Shown here piece by piece: positions 32,106 to 64,000 of a stretch of 64,000 nucleotides of DNA. The stretch comes from a virus: the IMG/VR virus record IMGVR_UViG_3300022538_000960, positions 1 through 64,000 of that record; one strand, given 5' to 3'. Each line of letters opens with the position of its first letter. Within the stretch, counting starts at the first letter, position 1. The notes beneath the pieces were generated by a model, which saw nothing but the letters and a program-made list of their open reading frames with translations, was not told the DNA's origin and ran no database searches. A program made the translations under genes and the position numbers.

Positions 32106-32113
32106 GATTTTTG

Positions 32114-32142
32114 TTGCAAAGGTGAGTGATTTGAGCTATAAC
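32114..32142 (+). promoter_or_regulatory. Putative promoter TTGCAA-N17-TATAAC upstream of portal
   Basis: TTTGAGCTATAAC at 32130-32142. Confidence 0.65.
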
Positions 32143-32210
32143 TCAACTGAATTGGCGAAAATTAATTTATTCAAAATATTATGCAAATCATGTAGTAGCT
32201 TGAAGCGTGG

Positions 32211-33650: not shown

Positions 33651-33713
33651 TAAATATGAAACTTTATTTGCTAGTATGGAAATTAAAACAATTAACTATT
33701 CTATGAAAGAGAG

Positions 33714-35282
33714 GTGATAGCGAAATTGTATATTCGAGAGTCGTACAAATTTGGCAAGGATTATATAGTTCGTGCGAAATCTGGTGTTAAGGTAACCGAC
33801 GGGGTCTACCCGGATCGGCTCCGAGTCAGGGTACCTGGCACCCATGGTGGATTCGTCAATAAGAATGGATACTTTTATAAGGTTGACGGTATGAAAAAGG
33901 CTTATAAATCTTGGGTATCACCATATAAGAAACCAGTATTAATTGGGCATGGCGATAACGAAGATCCGATAGGCCGAGTTGTCACCGCAAACTTAATAGA
34001 AGACGATCCCATGGATTATGTGAATAGATTTGGACGAACAGATAATATTCCTGCAGCTCATATAGATATGGAGCTCGAAATTACAGATCAAGAGAGCATC
34101 GGAAAAATATTGAATGGCGTATATCTTACTGTTTCCCAGGGAGCGGATTGTGATGAGGTGAAATGTTCAATTTGTGACCAAAATATTTCTGAAGAAGGCC
34201 CATGTGATCATAAGAGAGGAAGAACCTACGATGGAGAATTAGCCTATTGGATTTTTGGTCCTTTGAATTATCAAGAACTTAGTATTGTTAATGTTCCCTC
34301 TGATGAGTTCGCTATCCTTGAGCCTGTAAAAAATACTAATATGGAAAAACAAGAGGTTATGACTTTTCAGCCACCCGCAATGGATATGAACTGCGGCTTG
34401 GAATTCATAACAATTAAAGATTCAAAGGAGGACAAATCATTGGCTAAGAAGACTCCGAATTTCGATGATTGGACTGAGGAAGATGTGAAGCTGAGCCAGG
34501 AAATATGGAAGCAGGTTGATGAATTCCTGATGGATGGCCTAGAAGAGGAAGATAAGAAACTCACAGCTGCCGCAAGGAAGAAATTATCCGCTAATGTATT
34601 TTGTGGACCAGAAAGATCTTTCCCAGTTCCAGATTGTCTTCACTATCGTGTGGCCAAAACATATCTTGGAAGATATAAGGGGCCTGGCGATAAGAAAAAA
34701 ATCTTAGCTTGTATTGAGCGGCGCGGTAAACTTCTGAAGTGCGGAACCCAGGCAAAGAAGAAGGACGAACTCTTGGATCAGATCAATGAAGAAGTCAGAC
34801 CTTTCGTGGAGGAGAATTTCATCGCGAAGGACGAATTTGTTGAACTGAATGAGAAATTCGAGGATATTTCCGCAAAACAAGAAGATTCTGCCGGAGAAGC
34901 AGAAATACAGAAAACTAAGATTGGCGGGCTCGAAAAACAAGTAGAGGAATATGAGAAGGAAGTCAAAGATTCCTTAGCCCACCGGATAGTAGATATCCGA
35001 CTTCTCTTTGGTGAGTATCGGTTTACCAAAGAGGATAAGAAAGAGCAATATAAAGAATGGAGTGGTGCATTGGCAGATAGGGCCAAGGAATCTCTGTTGG
35101 ATACATTGACTGATTTGCAAAATAAGATGTTTTCTGGAAAATTGGAACCAGTCATTGATCCCGGTGCTCATACTGTGATTGATAATCTGAATCCTAAACT
35201 GAAAGATAAACCAAAAAAATTCGATTCTACTAAAGATGTCTTACACTTTTTTGTGTTTGGAAAAGAACTAAAAAAAGAATAA
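33714..35282 (+). CDS. Prohead protease fused to scaffold coiled coil
   Basis: KPVLIGH...DPIGRV, TVSQG, CSIC..CDH, ELSIVNVPSD and an acidic coiled-coil C-terminus. Confidence 0.85.
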   Translation: MIAKLYIRESYKFGKDYIVRAKSGVKVTDGVYPDRLRVRVPGTHGGFVNKNGYFYKVDGMKKAYKSWVSPYKKPVLIGHGDNEDPIGRVVTANLIEDDPMDYVNRFGRTDNIPAAHIDMELEITDQESIGKILNGVYLTVSQGADCDEVKCSICDQNISEEGPCDHKRGRTYDGELAYWIFGPLNYQELSIVNVPSDEFAILEPVKNTNMEKQEVMTFQPPAMDMNCGLEFITIKDSKEDKSLAKKTPNFDDWTEEDVKLSQEIWKQVDEFLMDGLEEEDKKLTAAARKKLSANVFCGPERSFPVPDCLHYRVAKTYLGRYKGPGDKKKILACIERRGKLLKCGTQAKKKDELLDQINEEVRPFVEENFIAKDEFVELNEKFEDISAKQEDSAGEAEIQKTKIGGLEKQVEEYEKEVKDSLAHRIVDIRLLFGEYRFTKEDKKEQYKEWSGALADRAKESLLDTLTDLQNKMFSGKLEPVIDPGAHTVIDNLNPKLKDKPKKFDSTKDVLHFFVFGKELKKE

Positions 35283-35309
35283 AATTTAATTGAAGGAGGA
35301 ACATTAGTA

Positions 35310-36626
35310 ATGTCCTTACTCGATTTCCCAGGGGATAGAAGCCGAAATATTCCGGCAAGGCGGAGACCTAGTAAATATGCGGAAAGTCAGATACGTCCGA
35401 ATATTTTAACTTCGCCTGGAATTTTTGCTGATCGCCCATTCCCTCCTTACAAATATTTGCCTGTGATGTTCAGGGATGTCACGACCGAAGACTATGTTGT
35501 ACTACTCAAAGGAACTATTGTTTCTTGTCTGTCCAACATGAGTTCGGATCCTAAATATAATTTTACGGATCAGGCGGATTTGTCGGGAAAATTTGATCTT
35601 ATGACACCTTCTGGTTGTGCCGATGAAGGCCATATTTATATTGGTCTTGGCGCAAACAATGTCATGAGGCAAGCGGGCGTAGATAGCTCTTACTGGGGCT
35701 ATGAGGATAGTCAGGCGGGGTTGCTCGTTCCTTGTAATGGAGGATTTGATTCCCAATTGCTGTATACCACTGATGACGTTACCGCCCAGACGATTACTGT
35801 GTCTGGTACCGAGGTTACTACCACCAATGTTACCAATGAGTATACAGTTCCAGTGGAAGCCAATTTCCCAATCGGCGTTACATATCAGGACGTGTACCAG
35901 GATATTGAAGGAAAATGGCTGAATTATAATTTGAATCCGAAAGCATCATGGGGCGTTGTATTTGACCATGTCATTGCGATTCCTTACGTTGATAACTATC
36001 AGCTGATTCATGGTGAAGGTGCTCATCCCTCTTGGACCAGAAATTGCTACGTGAATGATCGGAATTTCGATCTATCATGGCCATGGCAAACTGACGGAAC
36101 CTATACGGGTGCGCATAACATCTATGAAAGTCTTAGACGGGAATTTGCATTCTTGTATTCTCCGATCATATCCGACTATTTGGAGGAAGGGACTTTGACG
36201 GACGAAACTGCATTGCTTTATAAGATGCTGCGTCCGGGAAGCGCATTGGTCTCTGATAGATTTGGAAAGTTCATTCTATTGGACTGTTGGGGCACTGATG
36301 ATATTGCAACTGCAGAACTTAGAGGCCCAAGAGATGCTTTGAAGTTCTATTTCTGTCCGCCTTATTACTCCGTTGGAAAACTTATTACCACCGATTGTAG
36401 ATTTCCGAAGATGAGACTGGACACTGTTGACACATATCCAGGCTCTGGACTTACCGGAACTGAAACAGGTGGAATAGATTATCATCTATATCAATTTGCA
36501 TATACTATACTGACTGCGTGCATTGCTGCCAATAGTCTGACTTCTGTTCCGACTATTGAGAATGTTGTAGACTTCATACAATGCGGCACTGTAGGGATGG
36601 CATACATTAATCTTCAAGTAACCTAA
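35310..36626 (+). CDS. Head decoration / structural protein
   Basis: Lies between protease and major capsid genes; strong SD; LRPGSALVSDRFGKF. Confidence 0.6.
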   Translation: MSLLDFPGDRSRNIPARRRPSKYAESQIRPNILTSPGIFADRPFPPYKYLPVMFRDVTTEDYVVLLKGTIVSCLSNMSSDPKYNFTDQADLSGKFDLMTPSGCADEGHIYIGLGANNVMRQAGVDSSYWGYEDSQAGLLVPCNGGFDSQLLYTTDDVTAQTITVSGTEVTTTNVTNEYTVPVEANFPIGVTYQDVYQDIEGKWLNYNLNPKASWGVVFDHVIAIPYVDNYQLIHGEGAHPSWTRNCYVNDRNFDLSWPWQTDGTYTGAHNIYESLRREFAFLYSPIISDYLEEGTLTDETALLYKMLRPGSALVSDRFGKFILLDCWGTDDIATAELRGPRDALKFYFCPPYYSVGKLITTDCRFPKMRLDTVDTYPGSGLTGTETGGIDYHLYQFAYTILTACIAANSLTSVPTIENVVDFIQCGTVGMAYINLQVT

Positions 36627-36641
36627 AGGAGGCTAGCAATA

Positions 36642-38003
36642 ATGAAATTAAAGAAGTTGGAAAAATTGATCCTTACTGACGACGATAGAAAGAAAATTGC
36701 CGAGGATCAAGAGATTACGGAGAATATATATCGCATCTTCACTAATGATGGATATATAGTTGATGCTGGCTTCTCTCAGAAGGTTACGATTAATGACCTT
36801 TTGACATTACCGGATGTCCAAAGGTTCGTACCTCAAGTCGTTACCAGAATTCTTCATGAAGCTCGGGAACCGGCTCTTGTTATTTCGAGCATATTTGATA
36901 AAATTCGACTCGAGAGAGGTCAGACCATTCAAATCGGCGCCATTGGCGCAATAGCTGTTCACGAAGTGCCCGAAGGTGGAGAATACCAGCCATCCGATAT
37001 CGTATACGATTCCGGGAATATGGTAGGACTTTCTGTCAGGAAATATGGAACTTTACTCCAATTTACTGAGGAAATGTTCGAAGAATCCCAATGGGACGTT
37101 ATAGGACTTTGGATGAGAGCAGCTGGTCGTGCTTTTGCTCGGAATAGAGAGCAAAGGGCATCTCTGCTTTTGAATGAGCAGGGGGTCGTATACTTCGATA
37201 ACCGTTCGCCAAGTACTGCTATCTCTGGAGTCACCCATGGTAGGAATATCGCGGGTGTCGCAAATGGTAGTATCACAGCGAATGATATATTCGATATGTA
37301 TGCGTTTCTTGCTATGAGGGGCTTTGTGCCTGACACTCTTCTGATTCACCCGTTGGCTTGGGCGGTTTTTGCAACCGATCCTGATATGAAAGAAATTGTT
37401 CTGGAAAATGGACAACTTACTTCTAGAAGGATGCCAGAAGGTGGACCAGATCCGGGTTGGGGAACGGAACTGAATAGACTTGGATGGAGAACCAAGGCTG
37501 AGGGAGTTGGACTCGGTTCTACTACTGGAGCAGGGACTGCTTATGCTGGATGGACTGATCCCAATATTCCTGCAGCCATGCAGAAGATCGGAGCCATCCC
37601 TTATACTACTTATCTGAGTGCTCTTGGGGCTACTTTCAATGTCCAGCCTCGCTATCTACCCGGACCCCTAACTGTTCTCGTGTCTCCATTTGTTCCGTTT
37701 ACTGCATCGACCAGTGCAACTGGCAATGAGAATACTGTTGCCACATGTTCGGTGATCATGTTGGATTCCAGTGCAACCGGAGCTTTCATTGAGAAAACTC
37801 CATTGACCACGGAGGAATTCAATAATCCGATGACAGATACTCGGAGCCTGAAGCTAAGGGAGCGATGGGGAATGGCACTCTATGAACAGGGTAAAGGTGT
37901 TGTGATTGCTAAGAATCTCGTTGTCACTAGACACTATAATTTCCAGAATACTCATAATGTGACTTTGGGTGAAATCAACGATAGAACTGCAATCGTATCC
38001 TAA
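36642..38003 (+). CDS. Major capsid protein (HK97 fold)
   Basis: EVPEGGEY, VRKYG..LQFTEEM.EESQWDVI and PDTLLIHP. Confidence 0.9.
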   Translation: MKLKKLEKLILTDDDRKKIAEDQEITENIYRIFTNDGYIVDAGFSQKVTINDLLTLPDVQRFVPQVVTRILHEAREPALVISSIFDKIRLERGQTIQIGAIGAIAVHEVPEGGEYQPSDIVYDSGNMVGLSVRKYGTLLQFTEEMFEESQWDVIGLWMRAAGRAFARNREQRASLLLNEQGVVYFDNRSPSTAISGVTHGRNIAGVANGSITANDIFDMYAFLAMRGFVPDTLLIHPLAWAVFATDPDMKEIVLENGQLTSRRMPEGGPDPGWGTELNRLGWRTKAEGVGLGSTTGAGTAYAGWTDPNIPAAMQKIGAIPYTTYLSALGATFNVQPRYLPGPLTVLVSPFVPFTASTSATGNENTVATCSVIMLDSSATGAFIEKTPLTTEEFNNPMTDTRSLKLRERWGMALYEQGKGVVIAKNLVVTRHYNFQNTHNVTLGEINDRTAIVS

Positions 38004-42444: not shown

Positions 42445-45162
42445 ATGCCTTTTAACGATAGCTCACTGAATCGGATAGGTTCAAACCTGATCGATTTCAA
42501 TCTTCGAGTTACTGCTCAGGCTGATATTGGAAAGAGTTTGCTGATCATTGGCACGTCTAGTGATGGACCTGTTAATGTTCCGATTAGAATAACGGAAATA
42601 GGTGGACTAGGCGCGGCAGCCGAGGTGTTCGGCGATGTTAGCAAAGGTTCTCTCCTGCATACAGCCATGGAAGCTAATCGTGCGAACAGGCGCGCAAAAG
42701 ATATCCGTCTCATGAGAATTAGTAACGGCAATGAAGCACAATTGTGTTTCAAAGAAGTTGATATTTCTGGTGAGTACGGAATATCTCCTCCAGCGAAAAG
42801 TGTTGACGAGGAATCTTATTATTGCACACCAGCTCCGGCAGTTCAAATGCCGGATGTGTTCTGTTTGACTGCAAAATACCCGGGTCAGATTTATAATCAA
42901 GTTTCGGTCAGAGCTGAAACCGGTGATGGCGACCTACATCCTGCGTCTCAATATATTGTGATTTATAATCCGAAAACTGCGAAGGAGTCCTGGTTTTCTT
43001 TTAATTACACAGATTTTGACGCAATTGTTGATTGCCATACTGTTGAAGACCTAGCTGATGCCATTAATGCGGATTCGAATTTGAATAGCATAATTATAGC
43101 AACAGTTAAAGAATTGAACGCAATTTTTGAACTCACCGCTTCTGATCCAAATGATCCAGCAAATACCAGGTGTGACCGGGGTGTTTCATATGACAGCAAC
43201 GGATATTTGAAGATCCAACTTAGTGAAATAACTCCAGTGTTTTATAATGATAATGCGAACTGCTGCATATCGAATGTTACTACCACTGGTGGAACTTGTA
43301 ATGTGCCCACGGCTGGTGATTTGATTGTGCAATTCAATGAGCTTTATGAGGTTCGTGAATATAAAGAATCAAATAAGAAACTCAAAGGACTTACCAACTG
43401 CATTCTTGATCATATTCCTGTAAAAGGTGTTGCTACGATTCCAACGACTACTCTGATAAAATATCGAAGTTTCACCGATGCCGAGTATGCCACCCCGCAA
43501 CTGATCATGCATTACAGAGGAATTGTCATAGCAACCATAACCGATACCGGGACTTTGGCTTTTGAGTTTGCATCCGAGATTTGCCCCGATGATGGCTATG
43601 TGGATGATCTATACTGTTTAGCGACCGATAGTATGTATATGGCAAACTATGGCGCTATTGGTGCCCTTCGCTCTAATGTTCAATTGGATGCTCTTCAGAC
43701 TACGTTCCATTTGTATGGAACAAAAAGTAGTCTTAAATATGAAATTCCATCTGGCCATTATAGGTGCGAATATGTCCCTGGAACTGAAATAGTTACAGTG
43801 AGTTTCTGTTCTGGGGAGGTTTTGCCTGCAGTTGGAACCGTACTGAGCTGCGATTATGATTCTTGCATTGAGGATTTGTCGTCAGAGGCTGGAACTTTGA
43901 CCGCCTGTTTGAACAGTAATGACTGGCATACATGGTTTGTGAGTGGAAAGACACTAACATTTGGTAAATCTCTTCCTGGAAATGCATCCTTCAGATATAG
44001 ATATAAAAATAAATTGGAAGAGGGAGCTGATTTTGTCGTCACGAGTTCGACTGGAAGAAAAAATGATATTGTCCAATTCACAAGTCTTGAAACTCAGCCG
44101 GAATTGAGCGGAGCTATGGATACTTCTGGAGTATTGCTTGGATTTGATTATATTTATCTTCCAGAGTGGATATCAGATGGTGCGGTTAAAACACTTACTG
44201 GTGGCACGAATGGAATTGATATGAGCAACTATGAAAAGTATGAGATTTTGCGCGAAGCTCTTGAAGTTGTCCAAGATTATCCAGTGTCATACATAGTTTT
44301 AGCTGGAATATATTTTGATGATACCAAAATCGTGTATGATCCAGAAACCGGCATTCCGCTGGAAACCAATGCTGGATTTCATACATTGCTTCATAATCAT
44401 CTTGAGGAATTGACCGGTTCGACCAGTGAGACCACTGGAATCATGTCGGCTAAACCCGCTGATGGAAATACGCCGGCAGATGTCAGAGCTTGGGTTGAAA
44501 GACTCACAGTGACAGATGCCAGCGATCCGAATCGGGCAGCGAATATCTTATCAAGTTTCGGAAGCAAATATATGACCATTGTCGGTGGAGAATTAATTTT
44601 CTCTAATGAGGCGGCATATATTCCTTATGCAAATACTACTGAAGGTTTGTATGGGGGACTGCTTTCCGCACTGCCAATAAATACGTCTCCGAGTAATAAG
44701 ACAGTGTTTGGGGTGACGAATGTAAGATATCTGATGTCCGGTGGTGAAAATGGTCAATTGGATCGATTGACAAGACTCAGACTTGTGACTTTCAAGCAAA
44801 AGCAAGATGGTGATATTGCCGTTGTTTCCGGAGTTACTGCTGCTCCATCTGGAAGTGATTATCAACGAGAAATGACCAGGAATACTGTGTTTGAATCGAT
44901 GGCGCTAATCCGTGCAGTCTGTGAACCATTTTTGGGTGAAGGTAATAGTCCACAAATTCGAGCTGCTATGGAAACTGCCATCAATTCGGCGCTCCAGAAA
45001 TTGGTCGAAATGAATCCTCCGGCTCTTAGTGAATATGATTTTACTATAAGATCTACCGCTGCTGATCAAGTACTAGGAATTGTAAACATTGATCTCGTGC
45101 TCGTTCCTGTGTTCGAGCTCAGAGAGATTCGCGTAACTGTAAAGTTGCGAGCTGAATTATAA
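42445..45162 (+). CDS. Tail sheath protein (905 aa, large insertion domains)
   Basis: LIIGTSSDGPVNVP N-terminus, LTGGTNG, and C-terminal EPFLGEGN...LVPVFELREIRVTV. Confidence 0.92.
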   Translation: MPFNDSSLNRIGSNLIDFNLRVTAQADIGKSLLIIGTSSDGPVNVPIRITEIGGLGAAAEVFGDVSKGSLLHTAMEANRANRRAKDIRLMRISNGNEAQLCFKEVDISGEYGISPPAKSVDEESYYCTPAPAVQMPDVFCLTAKYPGQIYNQVSVRAETGDGDLHPASQYIVIYNPKTAKESWFSFNYTDFDAIVDCHTVEDLADAINADSNLNSIIIATVKELNAIFELTASDPNDPANTRCDRGVSYDSNGYLKIQLSEITPVFYNDNANCCISNVTTTGGTCNVPTAGDLIVQFNELYEVREYKESNKKLKGLTNCILDHIPVKGVATIPTTTLIKYRSFTDAEYATPQLIMHYRGIVIATITDTGTLAFEFASEICPDDGYVDDLYCLATDSMYMANYGAIGALRSNVQLDALQTTFHLYGTKSSLKYEIPSGHYRCEYVPGTEIVTVSFCSGEVLPAVGTVLSCDYDSCIEDLSSEAGTLTACLNSNDWHTWFVSGKTLTFGKSLPGNASFRYRYKNKLEEGADFVVTSSTGRKNDIVQFTSLETQPELSGAMDTSGVLLGFDYIYLPEWISDGAVKTLTGGTNGIDMSNYEKYEILREALEVVQDYPVSYIVLAGIYFDDTKIVYDPETGIPLETNAGFHTLLHNHLEELTGSTSETTGIMSAKPADGNTPADVRAWVERLTVTDASDPNRAANILSSFGSKYMTIVGGELIFSNEAAYIPYANTTEGLYGGLLSALPINTSPSNKTVFGVTNVRYLMSGGENGQLDRLTRLRLVTFKQKQDGDIAVVSGVTAAPSGSDYQREMTRNTVFESMALIRAVCEPFLGEGNSPQIRAAMETAINSALQKLVEMNPPALSEYDFTIRSTAADQVLGIVNIDLVLVPVFELREIRVTVKLRAEL

Positions 45163-45184: not shown

Positions 45185-45838
45185 ATGCCAGTTGGATTGG
45201 AAACTAGTTCAGTAACACGAACATATACGTCTTTTACGGGCGCGGATCTTAAAGCCATCTTCCATAACATCGTTATAGCTGAACTCATTGGTATTTCCTA
45301 TACTATTACCAGAGAAATTGCTCCTATCTATACTACAGGTTCTGCTGATCCGAGAAGTTTTAGCAAAGGCAAAAGAGGAATAGCTGGAACCATGGTAATG
45401 CACAATTTTGATAGGCACGCTTTGAGGAACATCATGGATAAGTCCACGTATGTAGCGAAGAATGACGACTTTCAAAGTGTAGGTTGGAAGCCAATAGATG
45501 AAATCAGTGGAATCGCTGGTGAAGGAAGATTAGGGGTCAGACTTGCAAATCCAATATATGTTGATCAGATTCCGCCATTTGATATTACAATTGCGTATGC
45601 GAATGAAACAGGACAAATGGCAACTGAGAGACTGATGGGGGTGCAAATTCTGAATGAAGGTCATGGGATCTCTATCGATGATCTAACAAATGAGACTAAT
45701 ATGACCTTTGTGTGCAGACATATTCAGGGTATGATCCCGGCGGAAACCATTAGCCCGTCAACTCAAGACCTGGAAAGACCTAACTATTCACCGTGGCGCA
45801 ACCTCGGAGGTGGAGCATTTACAGCCCCCGGTGAATAA
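45185..45838 (+). CDS. Tail tube protein
   Basis: Directly after the sheath gene; SFTGAD, ISYTITRE, GKRGIAG and DQIPPFDI. Confidence 0.8.
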   Translation: MPVGLETSSVTRTYTSFTGADLKAIFHNIVIAELIGISYTITREIAPIYTTGSADPRSFSKGKRGIAGTMVMHNFDRHALRNIMDKSTYVAKNDDFQSVGWKPIDEISGIAGEGRLGVRLANPIYVDQIPPFDITIAYANETGQMATERLMGVQILNEGHGISIDDLTNETNMTFVCRHIQGMIPAETISPSTQDLERPNYSPWRNLGGGAFTAPGE

Positions 45839-45841
45839 AGC

Positions 45842-45930
45842 ATTTATTTGGAGGAAAACTTCTTCATGGATCCTCCAGCCACGGTTGTGGGAGGGCCACT
45901 CCCCATGGTCCTCCTGCAGCCGAAATAAAT
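45842..45930 (+). promoter_or_regulatory. Structured intergenic RNA (three-way junction)
   Basis: ATTTATTT/AAATAAAT closing stem, TGGAGGA/TCCTCCA stem, and a 16-bp G-U-containing stem 45883-45898/45906-45921. Confidence 0.55.
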
Positions 45931-45932
45931 TT

Positions 45933-46121
45933 ATGAAAAAAATCATTGAATATACGTACGATGAGGAATCGGACGTTATGTATATATCCTTTGGTAAACC
46001 CAAACCTGCCGTTTGTCATGAAGTAGAAGAAGGGATGCTGCTTCGTAAAGATGCTGGTACGGGAATGTGGTGTGGTTTGACTATAATAAATTTTAGTAAG
46101 CGGTGTAATAAAGAAAAATGA
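45933..46121 (+). CDS. DUF2283-family protein, copy 1
   Basis: YDEESDVMYISF...EVEEG.LLR.D..TG...GLTIINFSKR. Confidence 0.75.
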   Translation: MKKIIEYTYDEESDVMYISFGKPKPAVCHEVEEGMLLRKDAGTGMWCGLTIINFSKRCNKEK

Positions 46122-46297
46122 TTACATGGAATTACGATAAGAAAGCTGATGTAATGTATATCACTTTCGGTAAACGACAAAAAGACAATATTGATCACCA
46201 AGTTGAAGGGGGTATATACCTCAGCAAAAGCATAAATAATAAAAAGTGGTGTGGTCTAACAATTGTTGATTTCAGCAAGCGATGTAATTCGACATGA
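46118..46297 (+). CDS. DUF2283-family protein, copy 2 (59 aa, not in ORF track)
   Basis: MITWNYDKKADVMYITFGK...WCGLTIVDFSKRCNST; ATGA overlaps on both sides. Confidence 0.75.
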   Translation: MITWNYDKKADVMYITFGKRQKDNIDHQVEGGIYLSKSINNKKWCGLTIVDFSKRCNST

Positions 46298-47172
46298 AAA
46301 TACAACATAGACAATATGGGAAGGTGGGAAATCTGCGGCCTGCGGCGTATGATTCTCCACAGTCTATAACCACATTCACTGGGGCTGATATTACAGCTGT
46401 CGCCTATATTCATGATCAGCTTAAAGTGTTGGGTGAATTACAGACGATCTCCTATTCGATTCATCGTGAGAAAAGTGCAGTCATGCTTTTAGGGAGAATA
46501 GATCCTCCATGTTTTACTCGTGGTCCTCGGACGGTGGCCGGATCATTAATCTTTACAGTTTTTGATCGGGAAGTATTGGAAGAACTTCTTAATACATATC
46601 CGGACGATACCGTTGATAATGATTTCAGTACGCTCCTATTGGATCAGATTCCCCCATTTGATGTAACAATTTCGTTTATGAATGAGGATGGGTATCTATC
46701 CTCTATGGTTATCTACGGACTTGAAATTGTTGATGATGGGCAGGTTATGTCGATCAATGATATGATCATAGAAAATGTTAAAGCATATAAGGCTCGCGGA
46801 ATCGACCTGATGTATAAGAAATCTGGTGGAGTCTGGACTCCAGCTAGAAAATTTAATCCATCTGCTCGATTCGAATCTCTGAATCCAATGAAAGTTAGGA
46901 ATATTGAGGGGGATTATATAAAATATGTTGAAGAATTGGATGGTCAAATCGATGTTCTATACGCGCAAATAGTGGTTCTTAGTTCCGAGAATACTAGACT
47001 TGAGCTTACGGGCGGAAGCCAAAATGATATGGATGCAAATGAATTGGAAATTGTGAAATTGGAGGCACAAATTGAAAATTTGAGAAGAGAAAAGAGAACC
47101 ATAGAAGTTAAACTTGGAATTGAGGAAAGAAGGAAGGATTTAGGTTTATTGGGAACGAGCTGGGTTTCATAA
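46294..47172 (+). CDS. Tail tube-like protein 2 with C-terminal coiled coil
   Basis: TFTGAD, LQTISYSIHRE, GPRTVAGSLIF and DQIPPFDV; paralog of 45185. Confidence 0.75.
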   Translation: MKIQHRQYGKVGNLRPAAYDSPQSITTFTGADITAVAYIHDQLKVLGELQTISYSIHREKSAVMLLGRIDPPCFTRGPRTVAGSLIFTVFDREVLEELLNTYPDDTVDNDFSTLLLDQIPPFDVTISFMNEDGYLSSMVIYGLEIVDDGQVMSINDMIIENVKAYKARGIDLMYKKSGGVWTPARKFNPSARFESLNPMKVRNIEGDYIKYVEELDGQIDVLYAQIVVLSSENTRLELTGGSQNDMDANELEIVKLEAQIENLRREKRTIEVKLGIEERRKDLGLLGTSWVS

Positions 47173-47205
47173 GTTCCTATCTTACTCATATTCAATAACT
47201 TATCG

Positions 47206-47238
47206 GGCGGATATAAATTTTAATATCCGCCATTTTTT
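47206..47238 (+). terminator. Rho-independent terminator
   Basis: GGCGGATAT/ATATCCGCC stem followed by T6. Confidence 0.8.
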
Positions 47239-47254
47239 GTGGGAAAATTGGGAA

Positions 47255-47267
47255 TTTGAGCTATAAC
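47255..47267 (+). promoter_or_regulatory. Putative promoter motif TTTGAGCTATAAC
   Basis: Immediately after the terminator and before the SD of 47286. Confidence 0.6.
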
Positions 47268-47285
47268 ATTCGATAGGAGCAAATT

Positions 47286-48605
47286 ATGAATAAATTTCGT
47301 AGTGGAGAAAAATTGTCATCCATTGATATAACCAGTGAACGGAAGTTTGATCTTGATCAAATCCGATTAAAGCAGTTACGTAAGCTGAGAGAATATTACA
47401 CCGAATTTTATTCCGGGCAACAGGTAAAGGTGTATATTAACGATGTTCTTCTTGATTTAGTGGCTATTGCGTGGAATGCTACACAGAATAAGATGCCGGT
47501 GTATGGATTTGCCTCGCAGCTCTTTGATGCCGTTGCCGAAGGAACATTTATTGTCAATGGGGAATTTACATTAGCCTTCAAAGATGTTGCAACAATGCAT
47601 TTCATAAATAGACATATCAAAGGTCAGGAATATGATGCAGAGACTTATGCCGCAAATATTAAAAAACTGCGGGCACTTCCTAGCGCGTCGGTCATACATG
47701 AAATGGGACCGGGTTCCGTTGGACTTACCCCGGTGGTTGCTCAAGTTCAGGAACTTACAATAGATGAAGAAGGGAATGTTGTTCCAGACGGAACCAAGGG
47801 CAAAATATACGTATCAAAAAATCGAGTAGAAGATCTTTTTGGTGGGCCAGATAATTTTGATGATCTATGTGATGCGATGGAGGATTCTATTTGGGGGATC
47901 GGAGACTACTATAAAAATCAATATAAAAGGCCTGACGAAATTGATAAGGAACAGAGATTTGATTCATATGGAATAGGCTATGATGTTGCAGGAAAAGGGT
48001 TTAATTTATTAGTCACATATGGTAATCCAAATAATTCTGAATCTGAACATACATTGAAAACGCTAAATGATGTGCATATCCTGGGTAGTGCCCAATCTAT
48101 AGATCCAAATGCTGGATTCATTATCGAGACATATTCATTCTTTGCTAGGAATATGGATCAGCCCATGTCCAACTATAAGGGATTTGATAAACCGAATATT
48201 CCTACAGACAGAATTGGAAGGAGCCCAACTGTTCTTAATTTTACAGTTCCTCTCACCGCATTTGATCACTGCAATAGGGAATTTTTTGAAGAGCCAACAA
48301 GCATGATTCTGTCAATAAAAGATAAAATTTGGGATTTAAGGAGGGAGGACAAAAATTCAAAAACTTATTTTATAAGGTCGGAAATATTAATTCCAAGTGA
48401 TTGGACCGTTGATAATCCAGAAAATGAAACTAGAATTATTGAAAAAGGCCCCGTTACCAGAAAGAATCTTCTCAATTATTTTGCCAGCAAAATACATGAG
48501 GTTATTAAAGATGCTGCCAGGGCAACTGAGACCACTTTTTCATTCGTTACTAATATTTCATCTTCTCTTAAAACTGAATTTATCATAAATGTGTCGATTG
48601 AGTAA
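47286..48605 (+). CDS. Tube-like / baseplate hub protein
   Basis: FYSGQQVKVYI, K.PVYGFAS..FDAVAEG..IV.G and IETYSFFAR. Confidence 0.6.
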   Translation: MNKFRSGEKLSSIDITSERKFDLDQIRLKQLRKLREYYTEFYSGQQVKVYINDVLLDLVAIAWNATQNKMPVYGFASQLFDAVAEGTFIVNGEFTLAFKDVATMHFINRHIKGQEYDAETYAANIKKLRALPSASVIHEMGPGSVGLTPVVAQVQELTIDEEGNVVPDGTKGKIYVSKNRVEDLFGGPDNFDDLCDAMEDSIWGIGDYYKNQYKRPDEIDKEQRFDSYGIGYDVAGKGFNLLVTYGNPNNSESEHTLKTLNDVHILGSAQSIDPNAGFIIETYSFFARNMDQPMSNYKGFDKPNIPTDRIGRSPTVLNFTVPLTAFDHCNREFFEEPTSMILSIKDKIWDLRREDKNSKTYFIRSEILIPSDWTVDNPENETRIIEKGPVTRKNLLNYFASKIHEVIKDAARATETTFSFVTNISSSLKTEFIINVSIE

Positions 48606-49233
48606 AATCGTAGAACTTCAAAGAAAATATACGGATATTTATTTATCAAACTTACGTGGTAAGACCTATATTTTTAGAGATCCTACTTTGGGCGAATGGA
48701 TGAAGCTGGAGAAGTTTGAATTTTCAAAATTGAATGCCAGCGCATACTTGGTCGATACCTTATTGCTTCATCCTTCGAAAGAAAGCCTACTAGCGGGCGA
48801 GATCCTATCATTAGGCAATGAAATTTATAAGGTTGCTTCCAAATTTGCAGATGATAATGTAATTGCTGGAACGTTGGATACGATATCAAAGGACCTGAAT
48901 AGTGGAGATAGTATAGAAAGTGTTATTATGATTATCTGTTCGGCATTTCCATCCTATAAACCCGAAGACATATATGAATTCAATTTTGATAGATTGATGA
49001 CAAGACTAGCTCAAGCTGAAAAAATTCTTTCCCCACCGGAAGTTCCAGGGACTGTTGGAGATGGAACTCCTATTTTGCCGGAACAGGCTTCAGGAATTGC
49101 CAGATCGAAAAATGATTTGCAAATTGCATTGGCAAAACATAGAAGCCAAATAAAGAAACTTACGCCACATAAAGATTCGAAACCTTATCAAGATCTGAAC
49201 ACGAAAAAACCTAATAAGTTAAGGAGGGAATGA
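48589..49233 (+). CDS. Hypothetical protein, tail-chaperone-like
   Basis: YIFR.PT.GE, ICSAFPSYKPEDI; position in the tail module. Confidence 0.5.
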   Translation: MCRLSKIVELQRKYTDIYLSNLRGKTYIFRDPTLGEWMKLEKFEFSKLNASAYLVDTLLLHPSKESLLAGEILSLGNEIYKVASKFADDNVIAGTLDTISKDLNSGDSIESVIMIICSAFPSYKPEDIYEFNFDRLMTRLAQAEKILSPPEVPGTVGDGTPILPEQASGIARSKNDLQIALAKHRSQIKKLTPHKDSKPYQDLNTKKPNKLRRE

Positions 49234-49234
49234 A

Positions 49235-49483
49235 ATGAGTTGGAAGATATGCCCCGCGTGCAAAGGAAAATGTTATATAATTTGCAAAGATTCGGATGGG
49301 AATGAAATTCCTCATAAATGCCCGGTTTGTGATTCTAAAGGCGAAATTTTTGTTGACGAAGTAAATCCCTACAGATGGTGGAGCCATCCATGCTATCCTT
49401 GTTACCCCATTTCTCCATGCATTGAATCAGATAGTACCGGGAATTGGCCGCCCGATGGCATAATTATTCAATATCAATACTAA
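49235..49483 (+). CDS. Small zinc-finger protein (DnaJ-type CxxCxGxG-like)
   Basis: CPACKGK...CPVCDSKG. Confidence 0.6.
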   Translation: MSWKICPACKGKCYIICKDSDGNEIPHKCPVCDSKGEIFVDEVNPYRWWSHPCYPCYPISPCIESDSTGNWPPDGIIIQYQY

Positions 49484-49499
49484 GGAAGGAAGGTAAATT

Positions 49500-49739
49500 A
49501 TGGATTTCCAAACTGGTGTATATTATTATCATTCAAAAGAAAAAAGAAATTACTTGTGTGTTGAAGTTAATAAAAGTCCGCATTGGGTTGAACCCGAAGA
49601 ACATGCTGCGGATGAAATACTTTATTCATTTAAGAGATGCAAGAAAAATAGTACTGCAATCGAAGATCATATCCCGGTCTATATATCTGATAGGCGATGG
49701 CTTAATCAATTAATTAATCAATTAAAGGAGGTGGAATGA
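49500..49739 (+). CDS. Hypothetical protein
   Basis: SD GGAAGG; overlaps the next start codon. Confidence 0.55.
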   Translation: MDFQTGVYYYHSKEKRNYLCVEVNKSPHWVEPEEHAADEILYSFKRCKKNSTAIEDHIPVYISDRRWLNQLINQLKEVE

Positions 49740-50143
49740 TGTCTGTGGATCAGAAAGAAGAACAGACAGAATGGACATACCCGTTTACTGCGGAAATGAT
49801 GAATGGCTGGAAAGAAAAATTCAAGGATGTTTTTTGTCTTAAGATTAATGATAAGTTTTATGCTTATAAACCCTTGAGCGTGGGGGAACTTAGGGAACTT
49901 CAAGTTGCCGAGATGAAAACAATCAGAGAGCTGGAGTCAAATAATGAATTAACTGACGATGAAAAAATGACTTTTGTCCAAAGCAAATCGATGGAGCGGA
50001 CGGTCGCCACATGTGTCCTCTGGCCGGAGGATTTTAGTTCGCAATTAGATAGTGTCCCATGTGGAGTCGTTGATAGGTTGAACGCAGAAATATTCAAAGT
50101 TTCCGGTTATGAGGAAGCCACAACTGAGCCGATGAAATTATAA
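49736..50143 (+). CDS. Tail assembly chaperone
   Basis: WKEKF..V, YKPLS..E, CVLWP, G.V..L...I..VSG; precedes the tape-measure-position gene. Confidence 0.7.
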   Translation: MMSVDQKEEQTEWTYPFTAEMMNGWKEKFKDVFCLKINDKFYAYKPLSVGELRELQVAEMKTIRELESNNELTDDEKMTFVQSKSMERTVATCVLWPEDFSSQLDSVPCGVVDRLNAEIFKVSGYEEATTEPMKL

Positions 50144-58536: not shown

Positions 58537-61500
58537 ATGCCAATTATTTATGATCCGGAAGAAGATCAGTTTGTAGATCGGCACGGATATTTATTTCCAA
58601 CTGTCCTATTAGGTGGCGGGTTCCTGGCTTGGAAAAAATATTATGGATCTCCACAGCTTGGAAGGAAATTTTCGCCCCGAGCATTTGTAGGATTTGTTAA
58701 AGATTTAGACCCTCAAGATTATCTAAGGAAATATCTTACAAGACCAGACAAGCCAGAACTCCCTCTCCAACGTAGGTTGGTAGAAACTGCGGTAGAATAT
58801 GAAAAAAGCAAATCAGTAATAGAATTTCTCACCGATGCCGATATGAAAACTATTCACTCAATCGGCTCAGCTCTTCCGACTCCGATGAAAGCGGAAGAGA
58901 TAGAATTCAAGCGGCAGGTAATTAGACAATTTAATCCGGTAACTTATGACTTGGTAAGATCCAATGTGGAAAAAACCCAGGAGGTATTCAACGAGTTGCT
59001 TGAAAATGTTGAAGAATCTAAACATTTACAAAGTGTTCTTAAACAACAGCTTGAACGATATAGATTTAAAAAATCTCGCCTATTGATATATTCGAAATTT
59101 TCTGAAATTATCAGTCCGGAAATGCTGAAGAGCGAAGCTGGACATCCTGTTTTGATGAGACAGCTATGGGATATGCAGAAGAAACAAGTTCAGGAAGCTA
59201 GGAGATTGGCGCAGATATTACAAAATGAAACTCCGGAAACTATAGTAAACTTAAAGATTCCAAAAGTTTTGGAGCGCATTGATCCAACCACTATCATAGA
59301 CGAGAGACGAGCGAGACTCCAACCCGCAGGGAAAACGATTAGTGATACGGGCATCAAGTTATCTTATACAAATTATAAATCATTTCTTCAGGAACTCCGA
59401 AGAGCGAGGGTCGATTCCAAAGCTGTGGCTGCAATCGAATCTATAGACCCATTACTAAGGCAGCATCTAAATGAACTTGCCCATACAAAACCTCGAATTA
59501 CGTATGCCCTTCGCGATAATGCATTCAACTTACAGGCCGTGATTAAATTATCTATTCAAACTAAAGAGGAAGGCAAAAGGGAGATCATTAATCTGAAAAT
59601 TCCTCTTGCTCGTGGTGGGAGATTAAGAATCAATGGGACCGGGTACATCCCTCAGAGATACCGAGGCATTAAGCCGCTTATCCCAGAAATAGAACGAATT
59701 GAATCTGATATCTACGAGTCGGTGATTCGTAATTTGAATAAGAGATTCAAAAGTGAAGTTTGGCATAAAGTTATGGATGGAGATGCCCGTGGAGGTGAAC
59801 GATCCATTAATGCATTGATTAAGGAACCGATTGATGAAAGATTAATCATCGAATCGGGGCGCCCAGTCCATGATTTCATTGAGCAGAATATAATCCAGGA
59901 TGCTAGACTCGGCTATCTGTCGCCTACACGTGGATTCAGAACTGAAGATGAGCGGCGTGTGGTGCTTGATCGATTCAAAAAAATGCAAAAACTTAAATTA
60001 CTTCTATTGGAGGGTGGAGGAAAGTTAAAATTACCAAATAGATATGCATTTATAGATTTTGAAACATTCGGAACAAAAACGAATTACCTGCCGCATCAAG
60101 TGACCGTAGGTATAATTGAAAATGGCGCAGTCGTTGATTGGTATACAGGAAAAATCGATCCTCGAAGCATTAATACCAACTATGCTTTTCCGGAAGTTGA
60201 TTTGAAGTTGTCATTCAAGGGAAAAACGAGAGAACAAGTTATGAAGGAATTCGATGAAATTGGACAACCTATTAGTAAGATTCGGAGAGATTTGGAAGAA
60301 TTCCTGCGGAAAAATGCCAAAGGAGGAAAGCTTCCAGTTGCTGCTTGGAGTGCTGGATTCGATGTGGATCGGGTAATGGGGCAGCAATTCTTGGGGGCCA
60401 AAGCATATTTGGGAGAAACTTGGGATCCGATGGATCTCCAAAAAGCTATTGATCCAGATGTTCAAGCTTCAGTTTCTCTTAGATCCGTTGGGCGATCTCG
60501 TAAAATCTTTGTGCCAACTTCTTCGAAAAAAGATTTGATTCTTAATAAAAAAGTTATTGAATTATTTAAAAAGAATCGCAATTTAATGTCTATCTTGAAG
60601 GACAAAGATCCTGGATTTCATGGTAAGTTAATGAAGGCAGTTTCCGAAAAACAAATAAGGGATCTGGTAATGCACGAGGCATCAATTGATGTACTTGTAG
60701 CAAATAAGGTCTTTCAGGATATTGCGAAAGATATTAATTTGCATTCATCTGTAGTGATGCGTGATTTGAATGCAATGTTATTGTCTTATCATAGAGCCCT
60801 GACCCGCTCAATAAATCCAATAGGTATCAATCACTGGACAACCAGAGCACTGGGATCTAATTTCCCCTCACTTTCTCCAGCTCAAATTTTGCAAGGTAAA
60901 TTTACAAAATTTGATATCAGAGATTTAGCTCCCCTTACTAGGTTAGGCTTAGATCCAACACGGCCATTTTATCAACAATGGGTTTCAGCGCACTTAATTA
61001 CCAAAGATGTTCCCGACTTGATTACGAAAACGTATAAGAAGATTGCTGATAAGCATGGCGAGCTCTTTAAATCGATAGATACATTAACAATTTTTAATCC
61101 ATTAACTGCAGAAAGTGCAGGCCTAATAGATTTTCAGGCTGCGGATGAAATGGCAATTAAAATGGGGACAAAAGAGATTAGAATTCCGCATACGGGCAAA
61201 TTGAAGCTCATACCCGAACTCAGAGAATATTTTGAACAAATAAAATCAACAAGGAGTCCGAGAGAGCGTGAAATAGTTTTATCTAAATTAAGACAGAAAA
61301 TGGCGAAGTCATATCAAAAGGGATCTCATTTCCAGGAATGGTTGCCTGGGTATACCTTACTTGGAGAAGCAGAAGGATTTACATTTAATACCTCGACTCC
61401 ATTGATGTCAACAATCGAGAACATTGAATACAATAATGAGAACAAGGAAATAGCCATTCGTCTCCAGACGGCGAGCCGTCCTGAAAAGTATGGGCATCCA

Positions 61501-64000
61501 ATGAAAGTTTTTGCCCGTGAACATAAGGGGATGTTGACCCCTGTAGAGGGACTGAGATCCATTACATGGGTTGATGCGGTTCTTCGTAAAGATCTTGTAA
61601 AACGCGGTAGGATGTCATTTATGTTGGGGCAAATTCAGAGATTAACCAGGAATTTTCAAGCAATTCATTCGAAATTAACCCCAGCTCAGACATTTCAATT
61701 TTTCGAAACAGTTAAGACTTTTGTAAGTAAGATAAACTCGATGGGGGGAATTAAATTAGATTGGCAAGTTAACCGAGGCAAACTTCAATTTATAGATGAA
61801 ATAACAGGTAAAGAGTGGCAAAAATTGGATCTTGGGAAAATCGAAAAAAACTGGTTGCAATTTTCCGAAGGTGGATGGGTTAAATTCATGAAAGAATATT
61901 CCCAAAAGATCCGGCATATGATGATTTCGTTTGGAGTTAAATATTCTAGGCATGATCCTCGCCTGCCCTATTGGACTCAGGGCCAAATTGAATCGATGTT
62001 ATCGACTGAGTGGGGTCGACGATTCCCCAAAAAGTTAGTGTTTGCTGATCTGTCCCGGGCTGAACAAAATGCATTCCGAGAGAAAATAGAGGTAGAAATG
62101 CATGATCAGCTATCAAAAAGTGAATTATCCAAGTTTTTTACCAAAGCAGAATTAGAGCGATGGAAATCCGGAACCTTAATGAAAGGTCATCTTTCTTTGA
62201 TTCAGCTCTTTGGTGGTTCTTGGGGGGTTTTAGAAGTTACCCCAGCATCGAGGGCATATGAGGCCGGCGAATTATACGCAAAGGGAACCGATGTTGCAAT
62301 TCCTCGTCTAAGTGAATTAGTTATATCAGGACCAGTTGGACAAAGATTGGCGCGATCATTTACCCCCCAGCAACGTGATATGATGAATTATATGTCAAAC
62401 ATTCAACCCCTTTTAAGATATGGTGTTTTGCCGGAATCCCATTATCCGATTGTAAAAGCTTCGGAAATAAATCTTGACCCTATGACAACTCACTTGGGAT
62501 TTAAGCAAGAAGTTGGGATTATAGAAGATAAATCCTTCAGAATTAAGTGTGTTGAAACTGGAGAAATTTTTAATTCTCTCGAAGAAGTTCCTGGCCGTTA
62601 TTTGAAACAATATACACTGAGGCCCATGGGCATGAATGCCTATATGCATCCTAAAACTTTGGAATCATTGTACGGACAGCAGCCAACCATAGCAGAATTT
62701 AATATAGGGAAGAAGACAGTTTATGTTCCCAGACCAGCATTATCATTTATTCGGGGTGCCCCAGCGAAAGTTACAAAGAGTGGGGACCCTTATACAATAG
62801 TTGGGAAGGAAATCCAAACATTTAAAAACCTCTTTGTGATGGCTGCCGATTATAAGTTAATCGAAGATAAAGAGGCGAAGAAACTTGCCGAACGGGAATT
62901 TTTTGCAAGAGTTGAAGATTATAGAAATATGTTATTGACCGATAAGTCCGCCTATATAAAACTTACCAAGCCGACTATTCCAGGAGTACAAGGTAAAATT
63001 TCCATGGCATTCCCTCCAGGAATGGCCAAGGCATTGGGATTGCCGCAGGATATGTTCGCTCATATAACTACGGGATTTGGAGTCCAGGGTGTGTCCATGG
63101 AGTCGATTGGAGAGGAGTATTTTAATAAGGCCATGGATGCTCACCAGATAAAAATCGGGCCAGACACCGGAAAATTTAGGGGTGGCACAGGATCGATTTA
63201 TCCAAATAAATTGGCATTTAGAGAGTCCCTTAGTAAAGGCGAGGAACTGCTGGCTGGGACCCTTATTCGAATCCCACCAGAAAGTAAATTCGCAGCTTTT
63301 GATACGTTAATTGACGTCAGAAGGGATCAAGCCGCTGGGATGCGTCTTCAGCTTAGAGAGGCTATGATGGCCCATTTCGATTTTGACGGGGATATTGCGC
63401 CACTAGGATTTGCGAATCTTACACCGGAAGACCAGGAGCAGGTTTTGAAGGATCTTGTGAATAAGCAACATATTGATCGCGAGGCACATAAAACATTAGC
63501 TGAAAGAATAAAAAAGTTGCATGCCAATGTTCTTGAATATGAAACCAGCAAAGATGCTGCAACCAAGAAGCAACTTGTCAAAGAGCTTGAGCAAATTCAA
63601 GAACTCGAAAAGACAATGAATGTCAATGTCTATGGCCAGGGTATTTGGGTGAGGGAAGCCAAGCCGGGAGTAACTCCAAAGGAAATTAAATTAGGAGTTG
63701 GCGATGAGATGAGGTTCCGGAAGATGAATTTGCACCAGTTTATGAAGGGATTACCATCTATTGATCTTCCAGGAAAGTTGATTAGCCTTCCGGGTGAAGA
63801 ATTGGAGCTACATCTTTCTAATATGCTTACAAAGACGGCTACAGCGTATTCTTATCGAGAAACAATGAGAATGAGAGCGTCCGGCAGATTATTTGGCGGA
63901 AAGTTGACCCAACAATACTTGGATTTGTATGATCAACTGGTTGGGAAAGTTACCGCATTCAAAAAAATTCCGCTTGCGGATGCAGAGGCTTTGACTCGGG
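58537..64000 (+). CDS. Giant single-chain two-barrel (DPBB) polymerase with fused DEDDh exonuclease; putative virion RNA polymerase (partial, >1821 aa, not in ORF track)
   Basis: Stop-free frame from ATG 58537. Exonuclease motifs FIDFETFG (60055), AWSAGFD (60361) and HEASID (60673-60690). Polymerase motifs MKVFAREHKG (61501), LIRIP (63268) and HFDFDGD (63373-63393). Confidence 0.8.
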   Translation, partial: MPIIYDPEEDQFVDRHGYLFPTVLLGGGFLAWKKYYGSPQLGRKFSPRAFVGFVKDLDPQDYLRKYLTRPDKPELPLQRRLVETAVEYEKSKSVIEFLTDADMKTIHSIGSALPTPMKAEEIEFKRQVIRQFNPVTYDLVRSNVEKTQEVFNELLENVEESKHLQSVLKQQLERYRFKKSRLLIYSKFSEIISPEMLKSEAGHPVLMRQLWDMQKKQVQEARRLAQILQNETPETIVNLKIPKVLERIDPTTIIDERRARLQPAGKTISDTGIKLSYTNYKSFLQELRRARVDSKAVAAIESIDPLLRQHLNELAHTKPRITYALRDNAFNLQAVIKLSIQTKEEGKREIINLKIPLARGGRLRINGTGYIPQRYRGIKPLIPEIERIESDIYESVIRNLNKRFKSEVWHKVMDGDARGGERSINALIKEPIDERLIIESGRPVHDFIEQNIIQDARLGYLSPTRGFRTEDERRVVLDRFKKMQKLKLLLLEGGGKLKLPNRYAFIDFETFGTKTNYLPHQVTVGIIENGAVVDWYTGKIDPRSINTNYAFPEVDLKLSFKGKTREQVMKEFDEIGQPISKIRRDLEEFLRKNAKGGKLPVAAWSAGFDVDRVMGQQFLGAKAYLGETWDPMDLQKAIDPDVQASVSLRSVGRSRKIFVPTSSKKDLILNKKVIELFKKNRNLMSILKDKDPGFHGKLMKAVSEKQIRDLVMHEASIDVLVANKVFQDIAKDINLHSSVVMRDLNAMLLSYHRALTRSINPIGINHWTTRALGSNFPSLSPAQILQGKFTKFDIRDLAPLTRLGLDPTRPFYQQWVSAHLITKDVPDLITKTYKKIADKHGELFKSIDTLTIFNPLTAESAGLIDFQAADEMAIKMGTKEIRIPHTGKLKLIPELREYFEQIKSTRSPREREIVLSKLRQKMAKSYQKGSHFQEWLPGYTLLGEAEGFTFNTSTPLMSTIENIEYNNENKEIAIRLQTASRPEKYGHPMKVFAREHKGMLTPVEGLRSITWVDAVLRKDLVKRGRMSFMLGQIQRLTRNFQAIHSKLTPAQTFQFFETVKTFVSKINSMGGIKLDWQVNRGKLQFIDEITGKEWQKLDLGKIEKNWLQFSEGGWVKFMKEYSQKIRHMMISFGVKYSRHDPRLPYWTQGQIESMLSTEWGRRFPKKLVFADLSRAEQNAFREKIEVEMHDQLSKSELSKFFTKAELERWKSGTLMKGHLSLIQLFGGSWGVLEVTPASRAYEAGELYAKGTDVAIPRLSELVISGPVGQRLARSFTPQQRDMMNYMSNIQPLLRYGVLPESHYPIVKASEINLDPMTTHLGFKQEVGIIEDKSFRIKCVETGEIFNSLEEVPGRYLKQYTLRPMGMNAYMHPKTLESLYGQQPTIAEFNIGKKTVYVPRPALSFIRGAPAKVTKSGDPYTIVGKEIQTFKNLFVMAADYKLIEDKEAKKLAEREFFARVEDYRNMLLTDKSAYIKLTKPTIPGVQGKISMAFPPGMAKALGLPQDMFAHITTGFGVQGVSMESIGEEYFNKAMDAHQIKIGPDTGKFRGGTGSIYPNKLAFRESLSKGEELLAGTLIRIPPESKFAAFDTLIDVRRDQAAGMRLQLREAMMAHFDFDGDIAPLGFANLTPEDQEQVLKDLVNKQHIDREAHKTLAERIKKLHANVLEYETSKDAATKKQLVKELEQIQELEKTMNVNVYGQGIWVREAKPGVTPKEIKLGVGDEMRFRKMNLHQFMKGLPSIDLPGKLISLPGEELELHLSNMLTKTATAYSYRETMRMRASGRLFGGKLTQQYLDLYDQLVGKVTAFKKIPLADAEALTR

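Follow-up and report, generated by a model that had tools for sequence, protein, structure and literature searches.

What does the giant open reading frame (ORF) encode that runs off the end of this viral DNA, among the tail genes? The window, by which we mean the whole 64,000-nt stretch analysed, comprises bases 1-64000 of the 98,001-bp IMG/VR record IMGVR_UViG_3300022538_000960 (CheckV completeness estimate 38%). An earlier reading made from the letters alone (the sequence-only reading) had followed a frame from the ATG at 58537 beyond the window end and proposed a divergent, injected RNA polymerase (RNAP). The frame indeed remains open through the window end, and its onward translation in the full record reaches a stop at position 64581, yielding a protein of 2014 amino acids (aa) on the + strand (P0002, here called the target). 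The ATG lies 12 nt past the stop of the upstream ribonucleotide reductase (RNR) gene and 8 nt past a GGGTGA Shine-Dalgarno-like site. We put at roughly 60% the probability that the target, as judged from its motifs, is a tail-delivered, exonuclease-fused and highly divergent single-chain two-barrel polymerase, most likely an RNAP for early genes, which occupies the tape-measure slot of a long-tailed myovirus that has not been cultured and is related to the 0305phi8-36/MTATph1 group. The polymerase core would be the C-terminal half, aa ~950-1830, and its most likely activity is that of a DNA-dependent RNAP.

All motif strings quoted in the sequence-only reading sit at their residue numbers in the 2014-aa translation: GHPMKVFAREHKGML at aa 986-1000, holding K990 and K997; VDAVLRKDLVKRGRMSFMLGQ at aa 1012-1032; TLIRIPP at aa 1575-1581; HFDFDGD at aa 1613-1619, with D1615 as its first Asp; and LTKTATAYSYR at aa 1764-1774. 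The candidate beta-like double-psi beta-barrel (DPBB-B) contains a Lys hairpin of the pattern P-h-K990-h-h-A-x-x-x-K997-G-h (h, hydrophobic), followed by D1013-A-V-L and K1022-R1023-x-R1025. K990 and K997 fall in a predicted beta-hairpin of a low-confidence AlphaFold model; the DPBB-B of two-barrel RNAPs supplies two conserved basic residues (PMC7824862). The candidate beta'-like barrel (DPBB-A) reads G-x-x-G-K1487, P-G, an inserted helical subdomain, h-R1578-x-P1580-x-E1582 and H1613-x-D1615-x-D1617-G-D1619.

For comparison, motifs were read from the sequences of E. coli beta and beta', phi14:2 gp66, P23-45 gp96 and 0305phi8-36 gp99. A hydrophobic-R-x-P element followed by DxDxD is common to the target and to beta', gp66, gp96 and gp99, and the spacing from the Arg to the first Asp, 37 aa in the target (R1578 to D1615), is 35 aa in E. 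coli beta', 39 in gp66, 38 in gp96 and 44 in gp99. The TKTA..Y element of the target lies 150 aa after D1615, and gp66 has a bridge helix that begins 168 aa after D1361. Both gp66 lysines are conserved in a 119-sequence crAss alignment, as K..A...KGV and then SQAVL; the counterpart in the target family is K..A...KG-h and then [VF]D[AM][VI]L. The motif order of a fused beta and beta' core, as originally proposed, was upheld with spacings like those of the reference two-barrel RNAPs and with residues that are invariant in the family described below.

The target has only six distinct full-length relatives, in three lineages and with identity down to 27%. Three are close, at 84-85% identity (P0003, which locus L005 encodes identically; P0004; and the product of locus L004), and three are divergent, with lengths of 2000, 2015 and 2055 aa and 27-30% identity. 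A word-indexed search returned two close relatives, an exhaustive phmmer search of 1.84 billion representatives returned two divergent full-length members together with fragments, and scans of IMG/VR and JGI metagenomes added one further member as well as gene context. No relative was found by tblastn among 50,697 deposited phage genomes in GenBank, and two queries of the ESM Atlas with the target gave no usable match.

In the family alignment, at 27-30% identity, the invariant residues include K990, K997, D1013, K1022, R1023 and R1025 of the candidate DPBB-B; G1486, K1487, R1578, P1580, E1582, H1613, D1615, D1617, G1618 and D1619 of the candidate DPBB-A; and T1765, K1766 and Y1773 of the candidate bridge helix, while 15% of all positions are invariant when four representatives, one per lineage, are compared. 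The conservation peaks include the GxxGK, IRxPxE and HxDxDGD blocks and those of ExoI, a motif of the exonuclease-like domain described below. The HFDFDGD string had been taken for the catalytic NADFDGD of beta'; it is present, and its His, three Asp and Gly are invariant, but F1616 varies (F/Y/P/A), so that across the family the motif reads H-x-D-x-D-G-D. Translated in six frames, the whole 98-kb record contains a single DxDGD, and of 200,000 shuffles that preserved the composition of the target protein, 81 produced RxP-(31-37)-DxDGD (~4e-4). Taken together, the rarity in shuffles, the single DxDGD and the invariance at 27-30% identity indicate, at the level of sequence, that the motif set of this putative polymerase is beyond chance.

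Short profiles pointed in the same direction. The top match of a 21-aa Lys-hairpin profile on a 41-sequence beta profile was the K1065/K1073 site (E. coli beta 1061-1078), and its top match on the crAss profile was gp66 1004-1014 (E 0.026); the segment next to the hairpin landed on the following gp66 motif, 1031-1041. Both crAss-profile landings are independent of the choice made in the sequence-only reading. The beta landing is not, because the segment had been picked there for its likeness to beta, and this lowers its value.

Several results weigh against a polymerase. AlphaFold2 modelled aa 930-1900 with a predicted local distance difference test (pLDDT) score of 44, the alignment being shallow, and aa 1465-1835 with 59.6, the catalytic loop scoring <50. 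With these low-confidence models as queries, neither Foldseek (PDB twice, BFVD) nor the VIA wide search gave an RNAP, and all matches obtained involved the confidently modelled helical hairpin, aa ~1630-1700; the structural check of two barrels therefore brought no RNAP match from models in which the barrels were scarcely probed. The hairpin itself may, on this model, be the counterpart of the clamp element found after DPBB-A in other RNAPs (PMC10770324). No PDB sequence was matched by phmmer with the whole protein or by hmmsearch with the family profile. Pfam, PHROGs and per-member Pfam scans gave a weak exonuclease match and no RNAP model, and the Pfam RNAP models PF00623 and PF00562 had no match in the genome. 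Neither gp66 alone nor the 119-sequence crAss profile gave a significant HHalign match to the target, nor did P23-45 gp96 by HHalign or hidden Markov model (HMM). HMM comparison with the other reference RNAPs was not significant either. With 80 beta' sequences the DFDGD decapeptide alone aligned (E 0.04), and with 0305phi8-36 gp99 the catalytic loop only, without significance. A longer DPBB-B segment did not land correctly on 41 beta sequences, the upstream barrel segment without DxDGD missed the correct site in beta', crAss and gp96, and the candidate bridge helix showed no significant alignment to known bridge helices. The two barrels would be separated by ~460 aa, three times the distance in gp66 and QDE-1, and the two strongest conservation peaks of the family (aa 1238-1262 and 1377-1401) fall between the proposed barrels and outside them; possibly these Lys-bearing blocks are alternative barrel elements, or a connector or clamp. 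RNAP families are reported to lack sequence similarity to one another outside the DxDxD region (PMC10770324). Membership of the target in the superfamily is claimed here at motif level only. What stands of the proposed divergent, injected RNAP is the motifs, the myovirus and the tail block; the double-psi beta-barrel folds, for which no significant profile match was obtained, are putative.

As a separate observation, the block at aa 1377-1401 resembles a degenerate catalytic hairpin and was paired by HHalign with gp66 DFDIDKMYVMLP in a greedy alignment.

A feature that the sequence-only reading had not described is a DEDDh 3'-5' exonuclease-like domain in the N-terminal half of the target. Its ExoI motif is IDFE (D507, E509), ExoII is F-[D/E] at aa 608-609, with D609 here and Glu in other lineages, and ExoIII is H713-x-A-x-x-D718; all are conserved across the family. 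The Pfam Rv2179c-like family PF16473 matched four of five members, the best with E 4.6e-5 and 21 bits against a cut-off of 27, and a profile of the domain found nothing at E<=1 among PDB sequences. To our knowledge, no DEDDh exonuclease fusion has been described for the two-barrel RNAP superfamily.

Table. Features of the target and of its neighbourhood. Positions are those of the window unless marked as genome positions.
Feature	Position	Strand	Basis or remark
Tail sheath gene	42445..45162	+	
Tube-like paralogues	45185-48605		
Small chaperone-sized ORFs	48589-50143		
Giant A, 2019 aa	50197..56256	+	Homologous to 0305phi8-36 gp145 and MTATph1 CDS0026
RNR large subunit, 752 aa	56266..58524	+	PHROG 84, E 5e-165
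Target ORF	58537..64000, continuing to 64581	+	2014 aa, protein P0002
N-terminal Gly-rich hydrophobic segment, aa 17-34	58585..58638	+	G26, G28, A31 invariant in family
DEDDh 3'-5' exonuclease-like domain, aa ~500-722	60034..60702	+	Motif columns, weak Pfam Rv2179c-like match
Candidate beta-like barrel (DPBB-B) core, aa 955-1032	61399..61632	+	Invariant residues, short-profile landings
Two most conserved family blocks, aa 1238-1262 (..AKGT.V.IP.L..LV) and aa 1377-1401 (..EF..GK...Y.P.P)	62248..62739	+	Conservation
Candidate beta'-like barrel (DPBB-A), aa 1481-1625	62977..63411	+	Motifs, spacing, conservation
Putative Mg2+-binding catalytic loop HFDFDGD, aa 1613-1619	63373..63393	+	Invariance, motif
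Long helical hairpin after catalytic loop, aa ~1630-1700	63424..63636	+	AlphaFold, pLDDT 74-88
Candidate bridge helix, aa ~1762-1790	63820..63906	+	T1765, K1766, Y1773 invariant; helical in both models
Second hydrophobic helix, Gly-rich, aa 1918-1936	genome 64288-64344, outside window	+	Sequence
Giant C, 2093 aa	genome 64802-71083		Homologous to 0305phi8-36 gp147 and MTATph1 CDS0032

The gene order around the target is terminase, portal, protease, capsid, sheath, tube-like paralogues, small ORFs, giant A, RNR, target, giant C and baseplate; the target block lies on one strand, tightly packed, between the sheath, tube and chaperone-sized genes and the baseplate genes. The sheath and baseplate wedge genes bear out the assignment to a myovirus, and the Gly-rich hydrophobic segment reported near the N terminus was also found. 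By terminase and sheath, the nearest phages are Moorella phage MTATph1 and the jumbo myovirus 0305phi8-36. Giant A, which has a PD-(D/E)xK/Cas4-like nuclease match at aa 1482-1578, resembles gp145 of 0305phi8-36 (E 7e-26), and giant C, with an N-terminal M15 peptidase, a lysozyme-like region at aa 1760-1944 and two hydrophobic helices, resembles gp147 (E 4e-16). In the annotation of 0305phi8-36, tail chaperones are followed by gp145, gp146 ("hypothetical tape measure") and gp147, a baseplate hub with peptidoglycan-degrading domains; gp145 and gp146 are annotated as virion proteins by mass spectrometry. Since the target is flanked by the gp145 and gp147 homologues, it fills the tape-measure slot of gp146. 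The target had been placed next to tail and tape-measure genes: it does stand in the tail block, but its upstream neighbour is the RNR gene and the tape-measure slot is its own.

Relatives at 29% identity keep giant A, target and giant C in this order, without RNR. RNR is missing at this position from all five related loci, including those 84-85% identical, so this metabolic gene is a recent private insertion into the tail cassette. The target has no similarity to gp146 or to the MTATph1 counterpart, both of which lack any DxDxD, and no tape-measure family in Pfam or PHROGs matched it. Compared with 0305phi8-36 and MTATph1, a predicted exonuclease/DxDGD protein in the tape-measure slot is, on sequence comparison, confined to this lineage. 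The three giants of ~2000 aa form a conserved enzyme-bearing tail cassette; paralogy among them was considered and rejected. In MTATph1 (record 30512-37868), CDS0027 and CDS0031 match different parts of gp146, with the transposase CDS0028 between them, and the gene in the tape-measure slot appears to have been split by the transposase.

A close parallel in layout is gp96 of the Thermus siphovirus P23-45, in which a tape-measure protein and a two-barrel virion RNAP with DFDGD are one; this motif led to its discovery, and its sequence likewise showed no detectable similarity to known RNAPs (PMC10770324). Both proteins are giants at a tape-measure locus, with DFDGD, an h-R-x-P element (~38 aa upstream in gp96), hydrophobic or membrane segments, and a peptidoglycan-degrading function that is fused or neighbouring. 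However, gp96 has 5002 aa, an N-terminal RNAP (aa 1-1200), a non-contractile tail and no exonuclease, whereas the target has 2014 aa, a C-terminal candidate core, a contractile tail and the DEDDh domain. The crAss-like phi14:2 gp66 (PDB 6VR4; bioRxiv 10.1101/2020.03.07.982082) resembles the target in being one polypeptide of ~2000-2200 aa whose gene stands with those of virion proteins, next to other giants. Both have a K..A...KG-h pattern in the Lys hairpin with an AVL motif behind it, then RxP and DFDxD, and the bridge helix, a candidate in the target, lies ~150-170 aa past the Asp triad; gp66 differs in its DFDID without Gly, a 140-aa barrel connector instead of ~460 aa, its origin from a podovirus and the absence of an exonuclease. 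As a side observation, several of the crAss-like gp66 homologues (P0069, P0071, P0073, P0095, P0097, P0111, P0113 and P0125) reach 2700-3400 aa and carry SF1 helicase/RecD-like Pfam matches, so that extra nucleic-acid enzymes are fused to virion RNAPs in the crAss family too.

The YonO-type enzymes (SPbeta YonO; 0305phi8-36 gp99, ABS83659.1) likewise have both barrels in a single chain, and gp99, which belongs to the phage group nearest by terminase and sheath, shows the same signature as FRSP...DTDGD. In contrast to the target, which has no RNAP Pfam match, gp99 has 1218 aa, lies at the genome end among non-structural genes and is annotated with Pfam RdRP PF05183. The virion RNAPs of phiKZ/AR9-like jumbo phages (PMC7598289) share with the target a large myovirus, a two-barrel enzyme and a role in early genes, the latter two being proposed for the target. 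They comprise four or five polypeptides, are recognisably beta/beta'-like and are packaged in the head (PMC7598289), whereas the target is one chain, unrecognisable to HMMs and encoded in the tail block. Finally, 0305phi8-36 gp146 shares the position between giant A/gp145 and giant C/gp147 and is a giant virion protein, but it has 2537 aa, no DxDxD and no detectable similarity to the target.

Could the target simply be a tape-measure or ejection protein with a DEDDh domain, its C-terminal half structural and its HxDxDGD a metal (e.g. Ca2+) or protein-contact site? We consider this unlikely, though deserving of serious weight. The target sits in the exact slot of gp146 and of MTATph1 MT27/MT31, neither with DxDxD, its length is held at 2000-2055 aa over 27% identity, as expected of a ruler, hydrophobic segments lie near both ends, as in many tape measures, the modelled region is largely helical, and no fold or profile search matched an RNAP. 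However, tape-measure proteins evolve fast and seldom keep scattered invariant Lys, Arg and Asp residues; here a set of five motif elements follows the order and spacing of two-barrel RNAPs, with an estimated chance of 4e-4 for RxP..DxDGD alone. The failure to match any tape-measure family also speaks against this explanation, as does the Gly at position 4 of DxDGD, which gives the register of RNAPs; an EF-hand-type Ca2+ loop was judged unlikely because its register is DxDxDG. The two roles are moreover compatible, gp96 of P23-45 being both tape measure and RNAP (PMC10770324).

If the protein is a two-barrel polymerase, it might still be one of another kind, either a proofreading, PolD-like DNA polymerase or primase, or an RNA-dependent enzyme of the QDE-1/YonO clade. 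A fused DEDD exonuclease, a hallmark of replicative DNA polymerases that is not known from two-barrel RNAPs, favours such an identity, the related phage 0305phi8-36 carries a YonO-like enzyme, and PolD and QDE-1 have the two-barrel core in common (PMC7281927, PMC9508822). Yet the gene belongs to the tail module and not to a replication module, the family matched in Pfam (Rv2179c-like) is one of exoribonucleases, the precedents for polymerases encoded by virion genes and delivered with the DNA (N4, crAss gp66, P23-45 gp96, phiKZ virion RNAP) are all RNAPs, and the target has nothing in common with gp99 besides the catalytic loop; we regard this identity as highly improbable. Because that loop alone aligns, derivation of the target from the YonO-like gp99 is not supported. 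Less credible still is that the target, though encoded among the tail genes, is an active enzyme which stays unpackaged and acts late in the infected cell. The metabolic RNR indicates that non-structural genes can sit in the block, but the order of the three giants is conserved at 29% identity and RNR is not, gp145 and gp146, which hold the first two of the three positions in 0305phi8-36, were detected in virions by mass spectrometry, and the terminal hydrophobic segments suit an ejected protein.

Returning to the tail-delivered polymerase, the strict conservation of the RNAP signatures and of the DEDDh motifs, together with the tape-measure position, suggests an enzyme that is probably injected and starts transcription; its packaging in virions and its role in early transcription are proposed from gene position and by analogy only. 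Encoded with the tail genes, the target would be made late together with them and, by synteny with 0305phi8-36, would be built into the tail along with the nuclease-like giant A and the peptidoglycan-degrading hub giant C. Contraction of the sheath would expel it into the host, with the terminal hydrophobic segments aiding passage through the membrane. There it would transcribe the first phage genes, D1615, D1617 and D1619 holding Mg2+ and K990 and K997 contacting the substrate, as their motifs suggest. The DEDDh domain (aa ~500-720) might trim or proofread RNA 3' ends or, alternatively, attack host nucleic acid. A more specific proposal, that the target combines a two-barrel core and DEDDh domain as a virion polymerase which proofreads or processes 3' ends and is delivered from the tape-measure position through a contractile tail, or else is a virion-delivered two-barrel DNA polymerase or primase, appears improbable to us.

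We know of virion-delivered two-barrel RNAPs in few lineages only, namely crAss-like podoviruses, the Thermus siphovirus P23-45 (as a tape-measure fusion) and, in multisubunit form, phiKZ-like jumbo phages. If the target is such an enzyme, it would represent a new family of virion RNAPs with a new position, phage type and domain fusion, functionally analogous to gp96, and a polymerase in the tail lumen would be a recurrent solution to early transcription independent of the host. Reconstructions of how two-barrel polymerases evolved would likewise gain a very divergent branch. The DEDDh fusion raises the possibility of exonucleolytic editing of RNA 3' ends by a transcriptase. Were the target a virion polymerase that proofreads or processes 3' ends, it would be the first of the two-barrel RNAPs to have a dedicated exonuclease domain; with this identity or that of a DNA polymerase or primase, two-barrel polymerases carried in tails or virions would have arisen independently for a third time. 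For 0305phi8-36-like phages, the analysis offers a functional hypothesis for the cassette of three ~2000-aa proteins as nuclease-like, polymerase-like and cell-wall-degrading.

Two further observations concern the surrounding DNA. An HNH/endonuclease VII-like gene lies at genome 72133-72825, between giant C and a baseplate wedge gene, and has the appearance of a mobile insertion. The element TGAGCTATAAC occurs in five exact copies, at window positions 20955, 32132 and 47257 and genome positions 64585 and 78561, all on the + strand and before structural genes; one of them starts 4 nt past the stop of the target, ahead of giant C. The copies are usually followed by ATT and have TTG ~17-20 nt upstream of TATAAC. 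Two copies with one mismatch, TGAACTATAAC, are found at 4069 and 4113, and allowing one mismatch gave 7 forward and 1 reverse occurrences, compared with 1 and 1 for a control pattern. This element looks like a late-promoter element of the phage.

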